Source of the DNA: Zestosphaera tikiterensis
GTDB lineage: Archaea; Thermoproteota; Thermoprotei_A; Sulfolobales; NBVN01
NCBI GenBank assembly: GCA_003056265.1
Contig: NBVN01000017.1
Coordinates: forward strand, 1 to 5,593
Direction: 5' to 3'
DNA length: 5,593 nt
Made by a program: the position numbers and the translations under genes. Under the pieces are notes generated by a model. That model was not told the origin of the DNA and ran no database searches. It worked only from the letters and a program-made list of their open reading frames with translations. Every line of letters starts with the position of its first letter. The first letter of the stretch is position 1. This document shows, piece by piece, positions 1-5,593 of this stretch.

Positions 1-298
1 TAAAAGGTCCTAACCTAAAGCTAAAGCAGTCTATTATCTGAAACGCGCCTTTATCAACGTAACCGTCTATGTCCCAGTTAAAATCTCTAAATAGTGAAAG
101 AACCGCCTCCGAAGAGTCGTCGAAATTCACGTAGACAACGCTACCACCACTCTTAAGGAAATTCCAAGCGATGTGAGCAAGCATTACCGACTTACCGACG
201 CCGCCAGGACCCGCAACAACGGACAGCGAGTTATAGGGAAGCCCTGAAGGTAAGGCCATATCAAGAGGCTCAATACCTAACTTAAACGTCTTAACCAA
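1..298 (-). CDS. RecA-superfamily ATPase of the KaiC/RadB/RAD55 (COG0467-like) type. Only the N-terminal part is present; the gene continues past the left window edge.
   Basis: Minus-strand translation from TTG 298-296 (alternative GTG 307-305) gives VKTFKLGIEPLDMALPSGLPYNSLSVVAGPGGVGKSVMLAHIAWNFLKSGGSVVYVNFDDSSEAVLSLFRDFNWDIDGYVDKGAFQIIDCFSFRLGPF, open to position 1. A GIxxLD motif, then Walker A GPGGVGKS, then FxWD...IID is the layout of archaeal KaiC/RadB-type ATPases. An in-frame stop at 349-347 bounds the ORF upstream. It is absent from the supplied ORF track because the start is non-ATG and the ORF runs off the edge. Confidence 0.75.
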   Translation of the reverse strand, partial: MVKTFKLGIEPLDMALPSGLPYNSLSVVAGPGGVGKSVMLAHIAWNFLKSGGSVVYVNFDDSSEAVLSLFRDFNWDIDGYVDKGAFQIIDCFSFRLGPF

Positions 299-354
299 AT
301 TAAACACCTTAAGATATATGTCTACTTTAAAGTTAAAAATATAGCCCTACGTCG
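299..354. promoter_or_regulatory. Divergent archaeal promoter region between the ATPase gene and the PPC-domain gene.
   Basis: The spacer is A+T-rich and holds TATA-like CTTTAAAG (325-332) and TTAAAAATATA (333-343). These sit about 25-30 nt from ATG 355/364 on the plus strand and from TTG 298 / GTG 307 on the minus strand. That spacing fits leaderless or near-leaderless transcripts. Confidence 0.4.
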
Positions 355-645
355 ATGATATACATGAGGGTAGGAACTATGGGAACCATGATTAAACCTA
401 TTAAAGTTCCGGAACGTTCTGCCTTACCGGACTACGTGGAGAAAGTCGTTCTAGAGAACGGGTTAAAAGGAGGGATGATATTCGGGATAGGAGGGTTTGA
501 AAAAGCCGAGATTGCTTTCTACAACACGCTAACTCAAAAATACGTGGTTAAGGAATACGTAAGTAAGGAAAACAAAATACTTGAAGTGCTCTCGCTTTCA
601 GGTTTCTACAACAGAAAGCGTTCTCCAGATCACGGTATTCCTTGA
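355..645 (+). pseudogene. PPC/DUF296-domain protein, 5' fragment. Native codons run 355-616; from 617 the ORF reads into inserted DNA and stops at 643-645.
   Basis: The translation MIYMRVGTMGTMIKPIKVPERSALPDYVEKVVLENGLKGGMIFGIGGFEKAEIAFYNTLTQKYVVKEYVSKENKILEVLSLSGFYNR has the GIGG...A...Y...(I/L)E(V/I)LSLSG signature of PPC (DUF296) domains. It lacks the following HxH / GGHL half. The last 10 codons (KRSPDHGIP*) are foreign. Confidence 0.8.
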
Positions 646-677
646 TATTCTTAATTACTTTTAGTTCCGTGGTCTGG
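625..677 (+). repeat. Subterminal inverted repeat / long hairpin at the left edge of the insertion.
   Basis: CCAGATCACGG (625-635) pairs with CCGTGGTCTGG (667-677). This gives 11 bp with one T-G wobble on the plus strand (C-A on the minus strand) and a 31-nt A+T-rich loop. The hairpin starts 8 nt inside the insertion boundary. Confidence 0.5.
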
Positions 678-778
678 TTCATCACGTTTCCTCTCGGGGC
701 CCCCCTCACCGCAGTAGCTCTGCTCTAGTTGCCTAGAGCTCCACAGCCCTACGGATCTCGGAACCCCGAGGTCACCAA
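678..778 (-). ncRNA. Candidate structured RNA 'A' of unknown family inside the 235-bp module. Strand is uncertain.
   Basis: This is a G+C-rich island in A+T-rich context. A perfect 7-bp hairpin GCTCTAG/CTAGAGC (722-728 / 733-739) has a loop that reads GCAA (GNRA) on the minus strand. A second hairpin is CTCGG-AACC-CCGAG (757-770). The minus strand carries a GUGAUGA motif (reverse complement of 680-686). The minus-strand start region AACTTATAAATGTATTGG resembles that of RNA 'B'. Counter-evidence: the 754-773 hairpin extends with a T-G wobble only on the plus strand. Confidence 0.3.
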
Positions 779-844
779 TACATTTATAAGTTTAAAAGTT
801 TCAAGTAATTAAGACCTATTCACAATATCTTAGGGTTTCAATAC

Positions 845-851
845 CTTAGAA
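845..851 (+). repeat. CTTAGAA heptamer abutting the IS left end. It is a candidate target/TAM-type motif and is identical to the IS terminal heptamer at 2322-2328.
   Basis: The 7-nt identity is exact. Copy one sits 4 nt upstream of the left subterminal hairpin. Copy two forms the last 7 nt of the insertion, 13 nt after the right subterminal hairpin. Confidence 0.5.
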
Positions 852-855
852 ACAG

Positions 856-875
856 CCTCGTCTTTTGTGGTGGGG
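856..875 (+). repeat. Left-end subterminal hairpin of the IS; also the first part of a repeated promoter module.
   Basis: CCTCGTC (856-862) pairs with GGTGGGG (869-875), giving 7 bp including 3 G-T pairs, with loop TTTTGT. The same arms recur at 2288-2308 and, on the minus strand, at 2647-2666. Confidence 0.55.
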
Positions 876-880
876 AAGGG

Positions 881-888
881 TTTATAAG
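881..888 (+). promoter_or_regulatory. TATA box (TTTATAAG) of the IS-internal promoter. The predicted transcription start is at about G911.
   Basis: TTTATAAG is followed by exactly 22 A+T-rich nt and then the run GGGGCTGG at 911. This matches archaeal TATA-to-start spacing. The same box and the same 22-nt spacing recur on the minus strand at 2640-2633. Confidence 0.5.
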
Positions 889-910
889 TTTTGCGTATTT
901 ATTGTTTTTA

Positions 911-1019
911 GGGGCTGGTTGTGGAGGGCGATCCTCAAGCGGTGGGTGAGGGTTGTGGTTTAGAGGGTGTGTCATGCCATACCTCCCTATCTTCCCTATG
1001 CCCTCCACGGCTGGTTCCC
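911..1019 (+). ncRNA. Structured 5' leader / left-end RNA hairpin of the IS, overlapping the first 33 codons of the tnpB ORF as called in the ORF track.
   Basis: GGGGCTGGTTGTGGAGGGC (911-929) pairs with GCCCTCCACGGCTGGTTCC (1000-1018). The stem is 19 contiguous bp, 6 of them G-U, so it is stable only as plus-strand RNA. An internal hairpin GGGTGTG (965-971) / CATACCT (978-984) has 2 G-U pairs. The 5' arm is G/T-rich and the 3' arm is C/T-rich. Confidence 0.5.
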
Positions 1020-2300
1020 AAATGTAGGAGGGTTAGTGTCGTTAGACTAGTACTAGATAATGAATCTGAAGTAAGGTTAAAGGCCCTATGTAGCTTAACA
1101 TCTAAGCTGTGGAATGAAGTAAACTACGTTAGGAGACGTCAATTCTTCAAAGGAAAAGGAGTTGATTTAAAGGAAACATATAGAGAGTTCTACGAGAAGT
1201 ATAAATCGTTGATAGGTTCTGTGACAGCTCAGCAAGTACTTAATAAGAATGGTGAAGCATGGAGATCGTTCTTCAGCCTACTGAAAGCTAAGAAAGAAGG
1301 AAAGCTACCACCATACATAGCAAAAGTCAACCCACCCGGATATAAAAAGAGAGGGAAAGCTAGAGAGTTATGGGTTGTGTTGAGAAACGATCAGTATAGG
1401 ATTGAAGGAAATAAGATAGTTCTGAAGGGACTGGGAGCCGTAGGGAGGATAGAGATGAAGTACAGAGGGTTAATCCACTTAAAGGGTAAGCAGGGCAGGA
1501 TTGAAATACATTACGATGCCGACTCTAAGAAATGGTATGCATACATATCATTCGAAGTTTATGAGAAAGCTGTTAGAGGTGTGTGGAGGAAGGTTCCTCA
1601 GGCTCCCAAAGGCGATTTGAGGGCTGGAGTGGATATTGGTGTGAATAATTTATTCGCAGTATACGTTGAGAACGGGACATCGCTACTTATTAACGGCAGA
1701 CCGCTTAAAGCTATATCCCACTACTGGAGGGAGAGGATCGCTAAATATCAAAACATTATTAACAAGTATGGTATTAAGTCTTCACGAAAGCTTAGGCTAA
1801 TGTACAGTAAGTGGCGTAGGGAGGTGAAAAGCTTCATAAACACACAAATTAGAAGACTCGTTGAGCGACTCTACGGGAGTGGAGTTTCAGTAATTTACGT
1901 TGGCTACCCGAAGAACATCGCCCAGGAGAGCGGAAACTTCAACACTGTTCAGGTGTGGAGCTACGGATACCTGTTGAGGAGATTAAACGAAGTTAGTGAA
2001 GAATATGGGGTAGCGGTATTATTCGTTGATGAATCCTACACATCTACAACATGCTCAATACACGGCGATAGTTGCGGAAAAAGAATAACGAGAGGACTAT
2101 TTAAATGTACGAAACTGAACAAAGTATTCAATGCAGACATAACAGCGGCATACAACATCTTAATCAAAGGCTTAACCATAACCCCAAACCCCCTAGAAGG
2201 GGTAGGGGTAATGGGCTGGAAACCCAGCCCGGGGCTAAACGAAGCGAATGTAGCCCCAAACCTCCCCACCCTAACAACACCAAGAACCCCCACCCTTTAA
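921..2300 (+). CDS. tnpB: TnpB (IS605 OrfB-type RNA-guided RuvC nuclease). The true start codon is unresolved: in-frame GTGs lie at 921, 942 and 966, and the recognisable TnpB sequence begins at about 1026.
   Basis: The N-terminal region RRVSVVRLVLDNESEVRLKALCSLTSKLWNEVNY is typical of TnpB. RuvC-I is AGVDIGVNNLFAV, with D at 1632-1634. FVDESYTSTTCSIHGDSCGK...C is the zinc-ribbon region. RuvC-III is FNADITAAYNIL, with D at 2136-2138. The ORF is intact, with no frameshift or internal stop. Confidence 0.88.
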   Translation: MEGDPQAVGEGCGLEGVSCHTSLSSLCPPRLVPKCRRVSVVRLVLDNESEVRLKALCSLTSKLWNEVNYVRRRQFFKGKGVDLKETYREFYEKYKSLIGSVTAQQVLNKNGEAWRSFFSLLKAKKEGKLPPYIAKVNPPGYKKRGKARELWVVLRNDQYRIEGNKIVLKGLGAVGRIEMKYRGLIHLKGKQGRIEIHYDADSKKWYAYISFEVYEKAVRGVWRKVPQAPKGDLRAGVDIGVNNLFAVYVENGTSLLINGRPLKAISHYWRERIAKYQNIINKYGIKSSRKLRLMYSKWRREVKSFINTQIRRLVERLYGSGVSVIYVGYPKNIAQESGNFNTVQVWSYGYLLRRLNEVSEEYGVAVLFVDESYTSTTCSIHGDSCGKRITRGLFKCTKLNKVFNADITAAYNILIKGLTITPNPLEGVGVMGWKPSPGLNEANVAPNLPTLTTPRTPTL

Positions 2301-2348
2301 AGGCGGGGAGGAGGTCAGATGCTTAGAAGCGATGGTAGGATATTCACG
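2186..2348 (+). ncRNA. Candidate omega-RNA (right-end RNA). The scaffold overlaps the tnpB 3' end and the right end of the IS, and is followed by about 20 nt of flank-derived guide.
   Basis: G+C rises sharply over the last ~110 nt of tnpB. A three-way junction can be drawn from three elements: a closing stem 2199-2208 / 2264-2272; the hairpin GGGCTGG-AAAC-CCAGCCC (2213-2230); and the hairpin GGGGCTA-13 nt-TAGCCCC (2231-2257). The hairpin at 2288-2308 follows. The IS ends at 2328, so the guide would be GCGATGGTAGGATATTCACG (2329-2348). The placement follows the established TnpB/omega-RNA architecture. The RNA ends are not determinable from sequence. Confidence 0.55.
2288..2308 (+). repeat. Right-end subterminal hairpin of the IS. 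The tnpB stop codon lies in its loop.
   Basis: CCCCACC (2288-2294) pairs with GGCGGGG (2302-2308), with one A-C mismatch on the plus strand that becomes G-U on the minus strand. The loop is CTTTAAA. The arms match the left-end hairpin at 856-875. Confidence 0.55.
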
Positions 2349-2471
2349 CATATCCACGTAGTTTTAGGCTTAGATCATGACGTCTTATGTGGTGGTCATT
2401 TAATAAGAGGTTTTGTAAAACCTCAGGTTGAGGCCTTCCTCGTGGAGGTTGCTGACGGCTCTCCGCCATGA
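2329..2471 (+). pseudogene. PPC/DUF296-domain protein, 3' fragment.
   Basis: In frame with the 5' fragment once 617-2328 is removed, it reads (S)DGRIFTHIHVVLGLDHDVLCGGHLIRGFVKPQVEAFLVEVADGSPP*. This carries the HxH...GGHL half of the PPC domain. The stop TGA is at 2469-2471. Confidence 0.8.
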
Positions 2472-2610
2472 ATGGCGGAGGTTCTCCCCCTAGGGCTTCC
2501 ATCACCTTTCTGAAGCCCCTCACCGGGAGTGCATCACCCATCAGTTCCCGCCGTCAGCTCCGGGAAGGTGTGGGACTCATCCCAAGCTACGGTTACCCAC
2601 ACCCAACCCA
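2451..2610 (-). ncRNA. Candidate structured RNA 'B' of unknown family, with two K-loop/K-turn-like motifs (possible L7Ae sites).
   Basis: On the minus strand the 5' hairpin is GGGTGTGGG/CCCACACCT (2604-2596 paired with 2574-2566; 8 Watson-Crick pairs plus one G-U) with a GGG/CCC extension. A 9-bp helix GCTGACGGC/GCCGTCAGC (2558-2550 / 2459-2451) then encloses three hairpins. These are GGGA..CUGA-UGG-GUGAUG..UCCC (2549-2525), GGGCUUC-AGAAAGGUGAUG-GAAGCCC (2518-2493) and CUCCGCCA-UUCA-UGGCGGAG (2480-2461). The start is predicted from TATA 2640-2633 plus 22 nt. The 3' end is undefined, but a hairpin plus T-run at 2424-2403 is possible. Confidence 0.45.
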
Positions 2611-2632
2611 ATACATATTAAGTTAGAGAAAG

Positions 2633-2666
2633 CTTATAAACATTTACCCCGCCTTAAAAGACGGAG
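2633..2666 (-). promoter_or_regulatory. Hairpin plus TTTATAAG promoter module driving RNA 'B'. It is homologous to the IS left-end module at 856-888.
   Basis: The minus strand reads CTCCGTC-TTTTAA-GGCGGGG (2666-2647; 7 bp, 2 G-U), then TAAATG, then TTTATAAG (2640-2633), then 22 nt, then TGGGTTGGGTGTGG. The IS has CCTCGTC-TTTTGT-GGTGGGG, AAGGG, TTTATAAG, 22 nt, GGGGCTGGTTGTGG. Confidence 0.5.
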
Positions 2667-2761
2667 CCTCAATGATTGGTGAGGTTCTTAAGCAGGAGTT
2701 TAAGCATAGGGACGTAAAGACGTGAGTGTGGAAAGCCTTACTCGTCGATGGGGTCGTGTTT

Positions 2762-4114
2762 ATGGGGAGGAAGTCGGTGTGTATTGTTGGGGGTGGTCTT
2801 GCAGGCCTATCCACAGCTTACCACCTCCTTATTAAGGGTGTGAAGGACATTACTTTGATTGAGTTAAGCGATAGAGTTGGCGGCCTTCTAAAGTCTGAAG
2901 TTATCTCAGGATATACATTCGACGTCGGCGGTTCGCACATATTATTTAGTAAGAATTTAAGGACTCTTAACGAAATGCTTAACTTACTTAAGTGGGATGT
3001 GGTTAAACATTATAGGAATGCTAAGGTATTCTACAAAGGAACTTTCGTGAAATACCCGTTTGAGAATGGGTTAGGTGACCTACCCCCTGAGGAAAGGTTT
3101 GAATGCGTGTGGGATTTAATTAATACCTACGTTAAGAGAGTTAAGGGTGAGTTACCACAACCTAAGAATTTCCGTGAGTGGATAGTCTACGTGTTTGGAA
3201 ACGCTATAGCGAGTAAGTACTTAATACCTTATAATGAGAAGATATGGAAGGTGGACTTAAGCGAAGTAAGTCTTGAGTGGGTTGAGGGAAGGGTTCCAAA
3301 CCCACCTTTAGAAGACGTCGTTAAAAGTGCTGTAGGTTTAAGCGTAGAGGGTTATACACATCAACTTAATTTTTACTACCCATCATCAGGCGGTATAGAG
3401 TCTTTAGCTAAGGCGTTAAGCAAGGAAATCATCAACAAAGGCGTTGAGGTTTTGTTAAACAAGCCTGTGAAGCTTATCCGTAAATCAATAAACGGTATGT
3501 TGTTAGTTGAAGCTGAAGGTGTTGAGAAGGTTTGCGATGCGGTGGTGTATACAGCGCCTTTAAATAGATCTGCTGAAGTCCTAAGTGAGTTACTTAACGA
3601 CTTAAGCAATTCTTTAAAGGCTTTAAGATCCGTTCCCTTAGCGGTCGTGGGGTTGGCGGTAAGGGGGGAGGCGCTACCCTACCATTGGGTTTACTTCCCA
3701 AGCAGTAAGGAGTTATTCCATAGAGTTGCTATATTAAGTAACTTCTCACGAAGTAACGCTCCTGAAGGTGGTGTAGCGTTAATAGCTGAGGTCTCCTTCA
3801 GAAGTTTAGATGAGATGAACGCCGTAAGCGATGATGAACTCATTCATAAGGTTTACCAAGATTTAGAAGGGTCAGGTCTTGTAAGAAATCCAAAGCTGGA
3901 GTTCGGGGTTGTGCGACGTTGGGCTGACGCCTACATAATATACGACACTATTAGAAGCTCAGTTTTAAAGGAGGTCGTTAATAAGTTGAGGAAATACGGT
4001 GTCTACCCACACGGAAGGTTTGGTTCTTGGGAGTATTTAAACATGGATGCCGTATATGAGAAGTCCGCGAAGTTAGCGGATGAGGTTGTGACGTATTTAA
4101 CTAGGGCTTCCTAA
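2762..4114 (+). CDS. FAD-dependent oxidoreductase of the amine-oxidase / protoporphyrinogen-oxidase (HemY-like) / UDP-galactopyranose-mutase-like superfamily.
   Basis: The N-terminal dinucleotide-binding motif is SVCIVGGGLAGLSTAY...ELSDRVGG. Other matching motifs are FDVGGSHILFS, NFREWIVYVFGNAIASKYLIPYNEKIWKVDLSEVSLEWV, FYYPSSGGIESL and the C-terminal HGRFGSWEYLNMD. The ORF track starts at GTG 2726. ATG 2762 places GxGxxG 9 residues from the N-terminus and is preferred. The specific substrate cannot be called. Confidence 0.8.
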   Translation: MGRKSVCIVGGGLAGLSTAYHLLIKGVKDITLIELSDRVGGLLKSEVISGYTFDVGGSHILFSKNLRTLNEMLNLLKWDVVKHYRNAKVFYKGTFVKYPFENGLGDLPPEERFECVWDLINTYVKRVKGELPQPKNFREWIVYVFGNAIASKYLIPYNEKIWKVDLSEVSLEWVEGRVPNPPLEDVVKSAVGLSVEGYTHQLNFYYPSSGGIESLAKALSKEIINKGVEVLLNKPVKLIRKSINGMLLVEAEGVEKVCDAVVYTAPLNRSAEVLSELLNDLSNSLKALRSVPLAVVGLAVRGEALPYHWVYFPSSKELFHRVAILSNFSRSNAPEGGVALIAEVSFRSLDEMNAVSDDELIHKVYQDLEGSGLVRNPKLEFGVVRRWADAYIIYDTIRSSVLKEVVNKLRKYGVYPHGRFGSWEYLNMDAVYEKSAKLADEVVTYLTRAS

Positions 4115-4179: not shown

Positions 4180-5593
4180 ATGCGTTTCTACCTCTTAGAC
4201 GTTAGTTATGAAGTTGAGGGTAACGTACCAGTAATTCTCATGTGGGGTTTAAAAGAGGACTCAACCCCTATCTTAATTAAGGATAATACCTTCAGACCTT
4301 ACTTCTACGCCTTAGTTGAGGATGAGAAGGCATTACCTGAAGTGAGGAAGAGGGTTAAGGCTTTAAGCAGGCCTTCCTCCCCCATACTTGAAGTCGTTGA
4401 AGTCGATAGGAAATACTTCGGTAAGCCGGTGAAAGCTTTAAAAATAACTACTTTAATCCCTGAAAGCGTAAGACATTATAGGGATGAGGTCTCTAAAATA
4501 CCTGGAGTTAAGGAAGTTTTAGAAGCGGATATTAGGTTCTCCATGAGGTACGTAATAGATAGGGACGCCCTCCCATGCGGTTGGTACGAAGCTGAGGTTG
4601 AGGTTTTAAGTAGGGATGCCAGGTATAGAGTTCCTGAGGTCTATCTTTTAAAGAGTGGTTTAAGAAGGATTGAGAGGAACCTACCACCGAAGCTTAAGGT
4701 TTTAGCGTTTGACATAGAGGTTTACAGCCCTTCAGGGTCTTTAAGGCCTTCTAAAGACCCTATAATCATAGTGGCGTTAGCCAACAACGACGGGGACGTT
4801 AAAGTACTTACCGCTGAGGATTTAAACAACGATGGAAAACTTATTGAGGAATTCGTTAATTACGTGTTGACTTACGACCCAGACATCATAGTAGGCTATA
4901 ACTCAAACATGTTTGACTGGCAATACCTACTCAGCAGGTCTGAATTCCTGAAGGTTAAGCTAGATGTTGGCAGAGCTAAGGGCGGCATCCCAAGACAGTC
5001 GGCTTACGGGCATATATCAGTTCCTGGGAGGCTTCACGTAGACCTCTACAACTTCGCCGAGGAAATACCTGAGATTAAGCTAAAGTCCTTAGATGAGGTA
5101 GCCGATTACCTAGGGGTTATGAAGAAAGATGAACGCACTTTAATACCTTGGTATGAAATACATAAGTTCTGGGACGACTTAAGTAAGAGACCCTTACTTG
5201 AGAAATACGCTAAGGAAGACGCGATATCCACGTTAGGCTTAGCTGAGAAGTTCCTACCCTTCGCTATGCAGTTATCAAGCCTTACAGGACTGCCTTTAGA
5301 TCAGGTAGGGGCTGCTTCAGTCGGTTACAGACTTGAGTGGTATTTAATGCGTGAAGCCTTTAAATACGGTGAGCTCATACCGAATAGGGTTGAGAGGGAG
5401 TACGAACCCTACAAAGGAGCTATAGTTTTAGAGCCTGCTAAAGGCGTTCATGAAAATATAGCGGTGTTGGACTTCACCTCAATGTACCCTAACATCATGA
5501 TTAAATATAACATAGGTCCTGACACATACGTTGACGGCGAATGCGGTGTTAACGAATGCTACATCATACCAGAGCTGAAGTATAAGTTTAGAG
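4180..5593 (+). CDS. polB: Family B DNA polymerase, N-terminal 471 codons. The gene continues past the right window edge.
   Basis: The frame is open from ATG 4180 to the window end. The N-terminus MRFYLLDVSYEVEGNVPVILMWG...FRPYFYALV matches family B polymerases. Exo I is LAFDIEV, Exo II is IVGYNSNMFDWQYL, Exo III is YAKEDAISTLGL, and polymerase motif A is VLDFTSMYPNIM. The short N-terminus resembles PolB3 / euryarchaeal PolB more than the crenarchaeal PolB1 type (tentative). A TATA-like ATATTT at 4151-4156 sits about 27 nt upstream of the ATG, which suggests a leaderless mRNA. The ORF is absent from the track because it has no stop in the window. Confidence 0.9.
   Translation, partial: MRFYLLDVSYEVEGNVPVILMWGLKEDSTPILIKDNTFRPYFYALVEDEKALPEVRKRVKALSRPSSPILEVVEVDRKYFGKPVKALKITTLIPESVRHYRDEVSKIPGVKEVLEADIRFSMRYVIDRDALPCGWYEAEVEVLSRDARYRVPEVYLLKSGLRRIERNLPPKLKVLAFDIEVYSPSGSLRPSKDPIIIVALANNDGDVKVLTAEDLNNDGKLIEEFVNYVLTYDPDIIVGYNSNMFDWQYLLSRSEFLKVKLDVGRAKGGIPRQSAYGHISVPGRLHVDLYNFAEEIPEIKLKSLDEVADYLGVMKKDERTLIPWYEIHKFWDDLSKRPLLEKYAKEDAISTLGLAEKFLPFAMQLSSLTGLPLDQVGAASVGYRLEWYLMREAFKYGELIPNRVEREYEPYKGAIVLEPAKGVHENIAVLDFTSMYPNIMIKYNIGPDTYVDGECGVNECYIIPELKYKFR

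Follow-up and report, generated by a model that had tools for sequence, protein, structure and literature searches.

The analysed stretch, hereafter the window, comprises 5,593 nt of contig NBVN01000017.1 of Zestosphaera tikiterensis. It contains a PCC-domain gene interrupted by foreign DNA, a tnpB gene preceded by a remnant of tnpA, and several RNA-like structured segments, whose coordinates are collected in Table 1. The segment 610-2318 is very probably an insertion sequence of the IS200/IS605 family (IS608-like) located inside the PCC-domain gene, with a 3' end that encodes the scaffold of a TnpB guide RNA. When genome contigs were searched from the window, the best match showed 71% amino-acid identity.

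Table 1. Features assigned in the window (coordinates of the window; LE, left end; RE, right end; L042, sister strain; L043, locus with the empty site)
Feature	Position	Strand	Evidence
PCC-domain gene, portion 5' of the interruption	355-609	+	PF03479; L043 alignment; P0001 collinearity
Predicted TAM/target-site equivalent CTAC, last four bases of the PCC 5' part	606-609	+	
First 7 nt of the transposon LE (AACAGAA), cut off from the remaining LE by element A	610-616	+	
Element A, 237-bp secondary insertion within the LE, 3-nt positional ambiguity	617-853	-	Absent from L042
Remaining LE	854-920	+	LE alignment, 13 relatives
tnpA relic, 37 codons, fused in frame to tnpB	921-1031	+	Alignment with relatives having intact tnpA
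tnpB, OrfB_IS605 and Cas12f1-like TNB domain	1032-2300	+	Pfam, PDB matches, family alignment
Predicted omega-RNA scaffold	2172-2318	+	Covariance model, covariation, folding
Scaffold P1	2182-2192/2199-2208	+	
Scaffold P2	2213-2218/2225-2230	+	
Scaffold P3	2231-2237/2251-2257	+	
Scaffold long-range pairing, CCUCCCC with GGGGAGG	2261-2267/2305-2311	+	
RE hairpin, alternative to the long-range pairing	2288-2295/2301-2308	+	
Predicted guide ATGCTTAGAAGCGATGGTAG, 16-20 nt, also first codons of the PCC 3' part	2319-2338	+	
Middle part of the PCC gene	2319-2451	+	L043 alignment; P0001 collinearity
Element B, PATE-like LE+RNA+RE mini-element without tnpB, position +/- 1 nt	2452-2678	-	Absent from L042
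3'-terminal codons of the PCC gene, including its stop	2679-2725	+	L043 alignment; P0001 collinearity

Boundaries of the insertion and its empty site

The right end is shared by about 27 related elements in the form ...GGGGAGGAGGTCAG or ...GGGCGGGGAGGAGGTCAG, and the similarity is gone immediately beyond it. Past GGTCAG no similarity was found among these relatives, the flank being different in each copy. In the window, the transposon terminates with ...GGAGGTCAG at 2318, and the following ATGCTTAGAA (2319-2328) is coding sequence of the PCC gene, for which an intact homologue carries Met-Leu-Lys/Arg-Ser (ATGCTTAAAAGT) where the window has ATGCTTAGAAGC.

An empty site was found at the syntenic locus L043, where an uninterrupted PCC gene reads GGTTTTTAC/ATGCTTAAAAGTGATGG. 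In the blastn alignment with this locus, 9-610 and 2319-2455 of the window match back to back, with 2319-2455 placed directly after TTTTAC. A target-site duplication is absent, as L043 reads TTTTAC/ATGCTT and the window TTTCTAC/(610-2318)/ATGCTT. When the protein was rebuilt without the three insertions, it was collinear with P0001 (106 of 133 residues identical), and the joined PCC protein matched PF03479. The splitting of a PCC-domain gene by an insertion, already proposed in the earlier note on this DNA, is thus confirmed by the empty site and by the collinearity with P0001. On the basis of the stop of conservation in the relatives and of the empty site in L043, the insertion was assigned to 610-2318, with CTAC as its 5' motif and a predicted guide starting at 2319; in these alignments the true boundaries are placed at 609/610 and 2318/2319. 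The sister strain L042 carries the same insertion, which is fixed in two strains.

Left end, tnpA relic and mini-elements A and B

The left ends of the relatives read TTAC/AAC(T)GAAAGCCTCGCCC, and in each of the 13 relatives whose left end can be read, TTAC was located directly 5' of AAC(T)GAAAG and a hairpin. The left end is uninterrupted in the sister strain (CTAC/AACAGAAAGCCTCGTC or CTAC/AACAGAAAGCCTCG). In the window, the subterminal hairpin CCTCGTC-TTTTGT-GGTGGGG (856-875) is degenerate and is split from the tip of the LE by element A. The corresponding hairpin of the relatives, CCTCGCCC-TTTA-GGGCGGGG, is the same in LE and RE, and the RE hairpin of the window contains two non-canonical pairs. 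A TATA box, TTTATAAG (881-888), was located in the LE and corresponds to the former tnpA promoter.

Relatives carry an intact tnpA at the same position, and the one in L002 matched PF01797 with an E value of 5.7e-41. The tnpA relic of the window has suffered two internal deletions and is devoid of the HUH motif and of the region of the catalytic Tyr; a Pfam search with it matched no family. The GTG at 921 is the counterpart of the tnpA start codon of the relatives and, since the canonical tnpB ATG (1022-1024) is out of frame in the window, translation must begin at this GTG. With no more than this remnant of the Y1 (HUH) transposase TnpA, the copy in the window is a non-autonomous derivative. 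It is probably no longer mobile, given this relic, an LE hairpin that is both degenerate and split, and a CTAC motif instead of TTAC.

Additionally, two mini-elements, A and B, which bear an RNA and lack TnpB, were observed near the tnpB element. The minus strand of element A presents a TATA-like box together with a structured RNA that is conserved. Element A belongs to a family of elements of about 256 nt, matched 103 times by a pattern search of the metagenome collection; the copies have conserved ends and a 5' GGCT that is likewise conserved, and their target is not duplicated. The consensus structure of the RNA comprises 41 pairs, 9 of them with double changes, and the RNA extends to the 3' boundary. 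A scan of viral contigs for the A-type motif gave no match. The segment 617-853 had also been considered as part of a long LE, or as a minus-strand copy of the B type, on account of the shared TTATAA..ATGTATTGG; this was rejected as L042 lacks the segment and the metagenome copies, with ends of their own, constitute a distinct family. The locus L101, where a tnpB gene lies just upstream of an A-type RNA, was rejected as the source of an autonomous partner: the A-type copy sits in that tnpB gene after GGGGCT, just upstream of the gene's own P1. Other ORFs upstream of A-type RNAs were host genes or noise.

Element B is inserted near the 3' end of the PCC gene, after a minus-strand TCAC. Its RE hairpin is CUCCGCCA-UUCA-UGGCGGAG, the element ends in GCCGUCAG, and it shows an LE-like inverted repeat with 859-892. 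A homologue in L054 (TTAC/AAC...) likewise lacks tnpB, and both have their own promoter-like TATA box and an RNA body. Element B was not detected in the search with the covariance model R1 described below; it belongs to a different RNA subfamily, and its assignment is based on its ends and on the L054 homologue.

Predicted guide-RNA scaffold and guide, and TnpB

The tnpB 3' end and the right end have a G+C content of 0.51-0.57, compared with about 0.35-0.45 in the surroundings, and their folding beats that of shuffled sequences (z = -2.3; 0 of 200 shuffles equal). The covariance model R1, built from 19 relatives with the window and L042 left out, gave a full-length match to 2172-2318 of 125.2 bits (E ~1e-34), ending at the boundary that the empty site had set independently. 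Across 21 homologous right ends, double changes were found in 14 pairs (48 cells), a level reached in 0 of 500 shuffles, and 95% of the cells were paired, whereas slid controls reached only 35-57%. Five of the six P2 pairs and five of the seven P3 pairs showed double changes, and the exchanges in P1-P3 were of the type G-C to A-U and C-G to U-A, with G-U intermediates. For the choice between the CCUCCCC/GGGGAGG pairing and the RE hairpin, only L026 is informative: all three partners are changed in it (columns 174, 198, and 216), in a manner that fits both. Upstream of 2172 no convincing internal TATA box was found, and for this reason processing from the tnpB transcript is assumed.

A G+C-rich structured guide-RNA scaffold at this place, as put forward in the earlier note, was therefore borne out by the covariance model, the covariation and the folding. 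The same holds for its terminal hairpin, which is the RE hairpin (2288-2308) and lies beside three conserved hairpins (P1, 2182-2208; P2, 2213-2230; P3, 2231-2257), and the compensatory changes that it proposed to look for in other right ends were present. Its location of the scaffold was also right, although the start given, 2186, has to be moved about 4-14 nt further upstream.

The TnpB protein matched PF01385 (E 1.8e-22) and PF07282 (E 6.4e-14), and TnpB and Cas12f were its matches in the PDB. The Asp residues of GVDIG and of FNAD (the latter being the NAD RuvC-III motif) are retained. By contrast, the canonical RuvC-II Glu position is occupied by Gly (VGYPKNI vs. IQMEDLTNI of 7WJU), which is true family-wide, and the Glu in VDESYTS is conserved across the TnpB family. 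Judging from these motifs, the protein probably falls into the class whose RuvC-II glutamate has been relocated, the position of the candidate substitute Glu being drawn from conservation only. Its predicted activity would depend on this relocated Glu because of the Gly at the canonical position. A relocated Glu was proposed for RuvC-II-rearranged TnpB clades from structural models in a 2023 survey (PMC10691335). Since the activity of the prokaryotic clades was deduced there from such models and no direct activity test for them was found in the literature, a thermostable TnpB of this class for which scaffold and TAM are known is a reasonable candidate for biochemistry.

The true left flank, GGTTTCTAC, ends in CTAC, and the predicted TAM is therefore TTAC-like, with a C at position -4 in the window copy; the consensus motif of the family, TTAC, is the same tetranucleotide as in IS608. 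In the proposed mechanism, transcription would proceed from the left-end promoter through tnpB, and processing would then yield the guide RNA. The body of this RNA would consist of three hairpins and a 3' part, CCUCCCC...(RE hairpin)...GGGGAGGAGGUCAG, and its final 16-20 nt (from 2319, AUGCUUAGAAGCGAUGGUAG) would be copied from the flanking PCC gene. Excision would leave the donor joint GGTTTCTAC/ATGCTTAGAAGCG..., rebuilt here as CTAC/ATGCTTAGAAGCG..., in which the TTAC-like motif is followed by a perfect match to the guide. Such a joint is a known kind of TnpB substrate, and it would be cut to restore the transposon. An reRNA made of the tnpB 3' end, the RE and about 16 nt of flank, the cleavage of the donor joint, and the use of TTAC by IS608 have been described (PMC8612924); for the window system, we infer transcription, TnpB binding, cleavage and TAM use. 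The general idea of the earlier note, a guide read from the flank and a donor joint combining a TAM with the guide match, was thus retained with other coordinates and another motif.

The explanation that competes best is that the element and its RNA are decaying, that nothing is made or used, and that the structure reflects recent descent from an active copy. This is unlikely, although a good deal speaks for it: the tnpA relic, the lost canonical tnpB ATG, the degenerate and split LE hairpin, the CTAC motif, and an insertion fixed in two strains, together with the mismatches of the RE hairpin, the absence of the inner P3 helix that is present in most relatives, and the lowest score of the window RNA among the full-length family (125 vs. 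129-174 bits). However, both strains have an intact tnpB frame of about 1.27 kb and also retain its in-frame fusion to the relic tnpA start; 39 synonymous and 27 non-synonymous differences between the window and the sister strain give a dN/dS of 0.18, near the 0.10-0.14 of the neighbouring housekeeping genes, and P1, P2, and P3 stay fully paired in the window. It could also be imagined that the element, immobile and without tnpA, has been kept as an RNA-guided nuclease module, its RuvC-II-rearranged TnpB being translated from the start of the tnpA relic, under purifying selection and partnering with, or exploited by, the nearby promoter-bearing RNA elements, and that the RNA of element A represents a new class of trans-acting guide RNAs; this proposal is speculative and quite improbable.

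There is very little chance that the hairpins are DNA-only recognition sites of TnpA, or a result of coding constraint on the TnpB C-terminus, with no RNA structure involved. The terminal hairpin is indeed common to both ends of the relatives and is separated by 10 nt from the point of RE cleavage, with GAAAG/GAAC immediately preceding it, as in the TnpA sites of IS608, and P1-P3 fall within the tnpB ORF. Nevertheless, the subterminal hairpin suffices for TnpA, while P1-P3 are located 60-135 nt inside the end; their exchanges are typical of RNA pairing and not demanded by the protein sequence, neither the length nor the sequence of the TnpB tail is constant over this region, and the TnpB-less element B and its L054 homologue retain the TATA box and the RNA body. 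Finally, the version of the earlier note, with junctions at 616/617 and 2328/2329, a guide at 2329-2348 (GCGATGGTAGG...) and a purine-rich TAM, (T/C)AGAA or TTAGAA, taken from 611-616 and 2323-2328, has virtually no probability left, for although AGAA occurs at 613-616 and 2325-2328, and 616 joined to 2329 also yields an open frame with a PCC domain (which stays open solely since the errors of 7 and 10 nt differ by 3 nt), the relatives and the covariance model match end 10 bases earlier, at 2318, 2319-2328 is host gene in the intact homologue, 610-616 fits the conserved LE start AAC(T)GAAAG, the AGAA of the note is transposon on the left side and PCC gene on the right, and the rebuilt empty site ACAGAA/GCGATGG is refuted by the L043 joint.

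Moving the boundaries has practical consequences: had a guide from 2329 been combined with an NNAGAA library, the assay would have failed. With the IS608-like insertion at 610-2318 as the preferred reading, the locus is a clean natural example of an IS608-like tnpA-tnpB family in Desulfurococcales-type archaea, in which the occupied site can be set against both a sister strain and an empty site. A defined omega-RNA scaffold, the start of the guide and a predicted TTAC TAM are obtained from it. It reveals neither a new TAM class nor a new mechanism.

Comparison with known systems

IS608 of Helicobacter pylori inserts 3' of TTAC without target duplication and has the same hairpin near both ends, with the GL AAAG just 5' of the LE hairpin, an RE cleaved at TCAA and the gene order tnpA, tnpB. 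The archaeal relatives resemble it in the GAAAG 5' of the LE hairpin, the RE end 10 nt past the hairpin at TCAG, TCAA or TCAT, the order tnpA then tnpB, and the insertion 3' of TTAC. The window copy differs from IS608 in its unrelated DNA sequence, its CTAC motif and its loss of tnpA.

Palindrome-associated transposable elements (PATEs) are TnpB-less LE+RE derivatives of IS200/IS605. Element B and its L054 homologue are similar to them: both have hairpins at LE and RE, a TATA box and an RNA body, lack an ORF and are inserted after TTAC or TCAC. Element A follows the same general logic (5' GGCT, RNA to the 3' boundary, no duplication), but a pair of LE and RE hairpins could not be recognised in it, and no autonomous partner of it is known.

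The Rfam family HgcC (RF00062) gave matches of 21.6 bits (2211-2331, plus strand) and 19 bits (2444-2567, minus strand), compared with a gathering score of 50, and at this threshold there was none among the relatives (19 sources). Membership was rejected, as the window and the relatives all score below it. HgcC members have been linked to sotRNAs, the IS1341-type tnpB 3' RNAs (PMC4615843). They resemble the window in being high-G+C RNAs of AT-rich hyperthermophiles that overlap tnpB 3' ends, and in the first hairpin, the terminal hairpin followed by GAGGAGGUCAG and, for element B, the UUCA tetraloop.

In ISDra2 of Deinococcus radiodurans (PMC8612924), as predicted for the window, the 3' end of tnpB and the RE encode the guide RNA, whose guide is about 16 nt taken from the flank, TnpB naturally targets the donor joint, which consists of the TnpA target motif and the flank, and the protein has OrfB_IS605/RuvC and Zn-ribbon domains. 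The window differs in its TTAC-like motif (TTGAT in ISDra2), its own scaffold sequence (three hairpins plus CCUCCCC/GGGGAGG), the Gly at the canonical RuvC-II Glu, the archaeal hyperthermophilic host and a tnpA reduced to a relic.

SisTnpB1 of Sulfolobus islandicus REY15A uses the TAM TTTAA, has the canonical D187/E271/D335 triad and cuts at 37-85°C (PMC10640517), and so pre-empts any novelty of a TnpB from a hyperthermophile whose guide and TAM are defined, the kind of system that the earlier note called directly testable. Both are thermophilic crenarchaeal TnpBs with an omega-RNA at the tnpB 3' end and a TAM deduced from the LE flank; the window system differs in its predicted TTAC-like motif and in its putative relocated Glu. 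Moreover, the window TnpB shares with the RIIr-5-type clades (PMC10691335) the Gly in place of the RuvC-II Glu, a NAD-type RuvC-III and another conserved Glu (VDESYTS).

Boundaries of the insertion and the motif at its 5' side

The right boundary of the transposon is at 2318|2319, and not at 2328|2329 as the earlier note had placed it, on three independent lines of evidence. First, similarity among about 27 related elements continues through ...GGGCGGGGAGGAGGTCAG (rare variants of this terminus are TCAA, TCAT or TCGT) and is gone at the next base; the guide position beyond it is variable. Second, a protein search with the PCC product retrieved P0001, an intact homologue of 134 aa (77% identity in the search) that reads ...SGFYMLKSDGKVF... 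at the insertion region. Its contig, L043, is syntenic with the window (KaiC, PCC, amine oxidase and PolB) and has the uninterrupted site GGTTTTTAC|ATGCTTAAAAGTGATGG, on which window positions 9-610 and 2319-2455 abut back to back. Third, a covariance model of the RNA scaffold, built from 19 relatives only and leaving out the window and its sister strain, matched window 2172-2318 over the full length of the model (125.2 bits, E about 1e-34), ending exactly at 2318. Since the boundary lies there, the insertion is 610-2318 and ATGCTTAGAA (2319-2328) is PCC coding sequence, Met-Leu-Arg-Ser. Without this insertion and the two secondary ones, the PCC gene encodes a 133-aa protein collinear with P0001 (106/133 identical). 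The guide, formerly given as 2329-2348, was mis-registered by 10 nt and starts at 2319. The former join of 616 to 2329 also keeps the frame, but only by virtue of a three-base difference between its errors of 7 nt and 10 nt.

In 13/13 relatives the left end has the form flank-TTAC|AAC(T)GAAAG-CCTCGCCC-TTTA-GGGCGGGG-ATG...TTTATAAG, and the right end repeats the LE hairpin and then reads AGGAGGTCAG|. The window junction is GGTTTCTAC|AACAGAA.... L042, a contig of the sister strain from a JGI metagenome, has this insertion at an identical position, with the junction CTAC|AACAGAAAGCCTCGTCTTTTGTGGTGGGGATGG. Directly 5' of the element, therefore, these two strains have CTAC and the family has TTAC. 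The predicted TAM is TTAC-like, with no purine-rich novelty; TTAC is this transposon family's most classical motif. The purine-rich TAM proposed before is thus abandoned: 'ACAGAA' turned out to be the opening bases of the transposon when left ends of the relatives and L042 were compared, and 'TTAGAA' (2323-2328) belongs to the host PCC coding sequence. The intact homologue on L043 has TTAC (TTTTAC) versus CTAC at window 606-609, a synonymous TTT/TTC change in a Phe codon. CTAC reflects either insertion at a non-canonical site or a mutation of the TAM after insertion, and the latter, if true, would shield the joint from TnpB. Separately, the right end of one relative, L019, has the cleavage motif TCAT with GAAA just 5' of the hairpin, versus the usual TCAG with GAAC; in this single lineage the pair looks like the guide/cleavage-site pairing rule of IS608.

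The predicted RNA scaffold at the tnpB 3' end

The G+C content reaches 0.51-0.57 over 2151-2350, versus 0.35-0.45 across most of the window, and this G+C-rich structured segment lies at the tnpB 3' end. The segment originally proposed folds better than its own shuffles (z = -2.3). When one genome per species was scanned with the TnpB protein, 41 related loci came up, most of them in Desulfurococcales-type MAGs (best amino-acid identity 71%); 21 homologous right ends aligned well. RNAalifold and explicit pair counts on this alignment detected four helices, listed in the table below, with 95% of cells paired and double changes in 14 pairs. None of 500 shuffles matched that pairing level, and slid controls were only 35-57% paired. 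The covariation check on other right ends suggested in the earlier note thus bore out its structured region and, essentially, its 'three hairpins plus terminal hairpin'; its general omega-RNA interpretation is right as well. The scaffold start moves slightly upstream of 2186.

Features of the window and helices of the right end
Feature	Position	Strand
KaiC-like ATPase gene	2-259	-
PCC-domain gene, interrupted	start near 355-379	
Element A, secondary insertion (237 bp)	617-853	-
tnpB, long ORF with OrfB_IS605 and Cas12f1-like TNB domains	921-2300	
Helix P1	2182-2192 / 2199-2208	
Helix P2	2213-2218 / 2225-2230	
Helix P3	2231-2237 / 2251-2257	
RE hairpin	2288-2295 / 2301-2308	
Element B, secondary insertion	2452-2678	-
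Amine-oxidase-like flavoprotein gene	2726-4114	
Family-B DNA polymerase gene	from 4180	

Alternatively, CCUCCCC (2261-2267) can pair at long range with GGGGAGG (2305-2311). In L026, a single lineage, a G-to-A change in GGGGAGG is accompanied by C-to-T changes in both candidate partners, in CCUCCCC and in the RE hairpin's 5' arm (right-end alignment columns 174, 198 and 216); the two pairings may therefore both be relevant, the one in the RNA and the other in the DNA.

State of this copy and its secondary insertions

Upstream of their tnpB, the relatives have a Y1 transposase gene, tnpA, that is intact (the L002 copy matches PF01797, E 5.7e-41). In the window, this gene is a relic at 921-1031 with two large deletions, fused in frame to tnpB; no Pfam match or HUH motif was found in it. 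The canonical tnpB ATG (1022-1024) is out of frame, with a TAG after it in its own frame, and therefore translation has to begin at GTG 921, the former tnpA start codon, which lies downstream of the LE TATA box (881-888). TnpB can thus only be produced with an N-terminal extension, and L042 retains this arrangement. Both strains have a degenerate LE hairpin, and in the window the LE is further split by element A, which L042 lacks. Given the tnpA relic, the degenerate hairpin and the split LE, the element is very probably immobile; it was already fixed when the two strains diverged. They share 94% identity over the transposon (window 854-2462, L042 1140-2749) and 98% in the flanks. The tnpB frame is intact in both, with 39 synonymous and 27 non-synonymous differences (dN/dS 0.18; 0.10-0.14 in the flanking flavoprotein and PolB genes). 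Its dS, 0.155, exceeds that of the neighbour genes (0.05-0.07) by a factor of two to three; gene conversion by other copies or an elevated local mutation rate may be the cause.

Element B, absent from L042, was inserted after a minus-strand TCAC in the PCC 3' end and swaps the last 15 codons for ADGSPP-stop. It has an LE-like hairpin and TATA box (an inverted repeat with 859-892), a G+C-rich RNA body, the RE hairpin CUCCGCCA-UUCA-UGGCGGAG and then AGCCGUCAG, and contains no ORF. A homologue occurs in L054 (reverse strand, about 4484-4690) as TTAC|AACTGGAAGCCCCGCC...GGGCGGGGAGCCGTCAG|. The covariance model did not match element B, a PATE-like, TnpB-less mini-element whose ends and target are those of the tnpA-tnpB family and whose RNA body is different; its RNA would bear the guide CAACCUCCACGAGGAAGGCC.

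Element A was inserted after a minus-strand GGCT. Its family comprises elements of about 256 nt, with 103 exact-pattern matches (L045-L147) in the metagenome collection, conserved ends (GTTTCGGTCTTCATA... to ...CTACCGAGAAACGG), a TATA-like palindrome and GGCT kept directly 5' without target duplication. The two-domain RNA, composed of a GNRA hairpin and, on the 3' side, a long hairpin that has a GA-rich internal loop, reaches the 3' boundary; 9 of its 41 predicted pairs show double changes, and it has no Rfam match. No autonomous partner of this family was found. A tnpB adjoins an A-type RNA in L101 only, and was rejected as partner because that gene is itself interrupted by the A-type copy (about 2040-2460, after GGGGCT, just upstream of its own omega-RNA P1 region). 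L101 is the second case, after the window, of an A-type element inside an IS200/IS605 element.

Predicted function and comparison with known systems

The reRNA of ISDra2 consists of the tnpB 3' end, the RE and about 16 nt of flank, and cutting of the donor joint (TAM plus flank) reinstates the transposon (PMC8612924). By homology, the window RNA would be transcribed and processed to 2172-2318 plus a guide from 2319 (AUGCUUAGAAGCGAUGGUAG), and TnpB would bind it and cleave, with use of the TAM, the cognate joint GGTTTCTAC|ATGCTTAGAAGCG. A 'retention' function is moot in this copy because tnpA has been lost.

Rfam HgcC matches the window below its gathering score of 50, with 21.6 bits at 2211-2331 and, on the minus strand at element B, 19 bits at 2444-2567, and none of the relatives reaches that threshold. 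HgcC has been tied both to 3' RNAs of IS1341-type tnpB genes and to an RE tetraloop, UUCA (PMC4615843); the RNA described here is HgcC-like and outside the curated family. The main argument for interest in the earlier note, a hyperthermophile TnpB with defined guide and TAM, fails because SisTnpB1, from a hyperthermophilic archaeon, has been published with its omega-RNA, guide and TAM (TTTAA), along with activity at 37-85 C (PMC10640517).

The window TnpB retains the RuvC-I (GVDIG) and RuvC-III (FNAD) Asp residues. As in all the relatives of this family, Gly occupies the canonical RuvC-II Glu position (VGYPKNIAQE, window 1890-1915; VGYPKNI versus IQMEDLTNI of a Cas12f structure), and the zinc ribbon is a C-x2-H...C...C variant. 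The Glu of V(D/N/S)E..TS (VDESYTS, at about 2020-2040) is invariant in all family members and is the likely substitute catalytic residue. The pattern fits the TnpB clades termed 'RuvC-II rearranged'; using structural models, a 2023 survey that left the consequences for testing proposed a relocated Glu for them (PMC10691335). Related rearrangements in eukaryotic Fanzors have reportedly been studied experimentally.

IS608 targets TTAC, carries AAAG just 5' of the LE hairpin, is cleaved at TCAA 10 nt past the RE hairpin and does not duplicate its target. The family described here has all four features (target, AAAG, cleavage distance and no duplication) in common with it; the TTAC target is also given in PMC8612924. 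The element is an ordinary, probably immobilised, IS608-like transposon.
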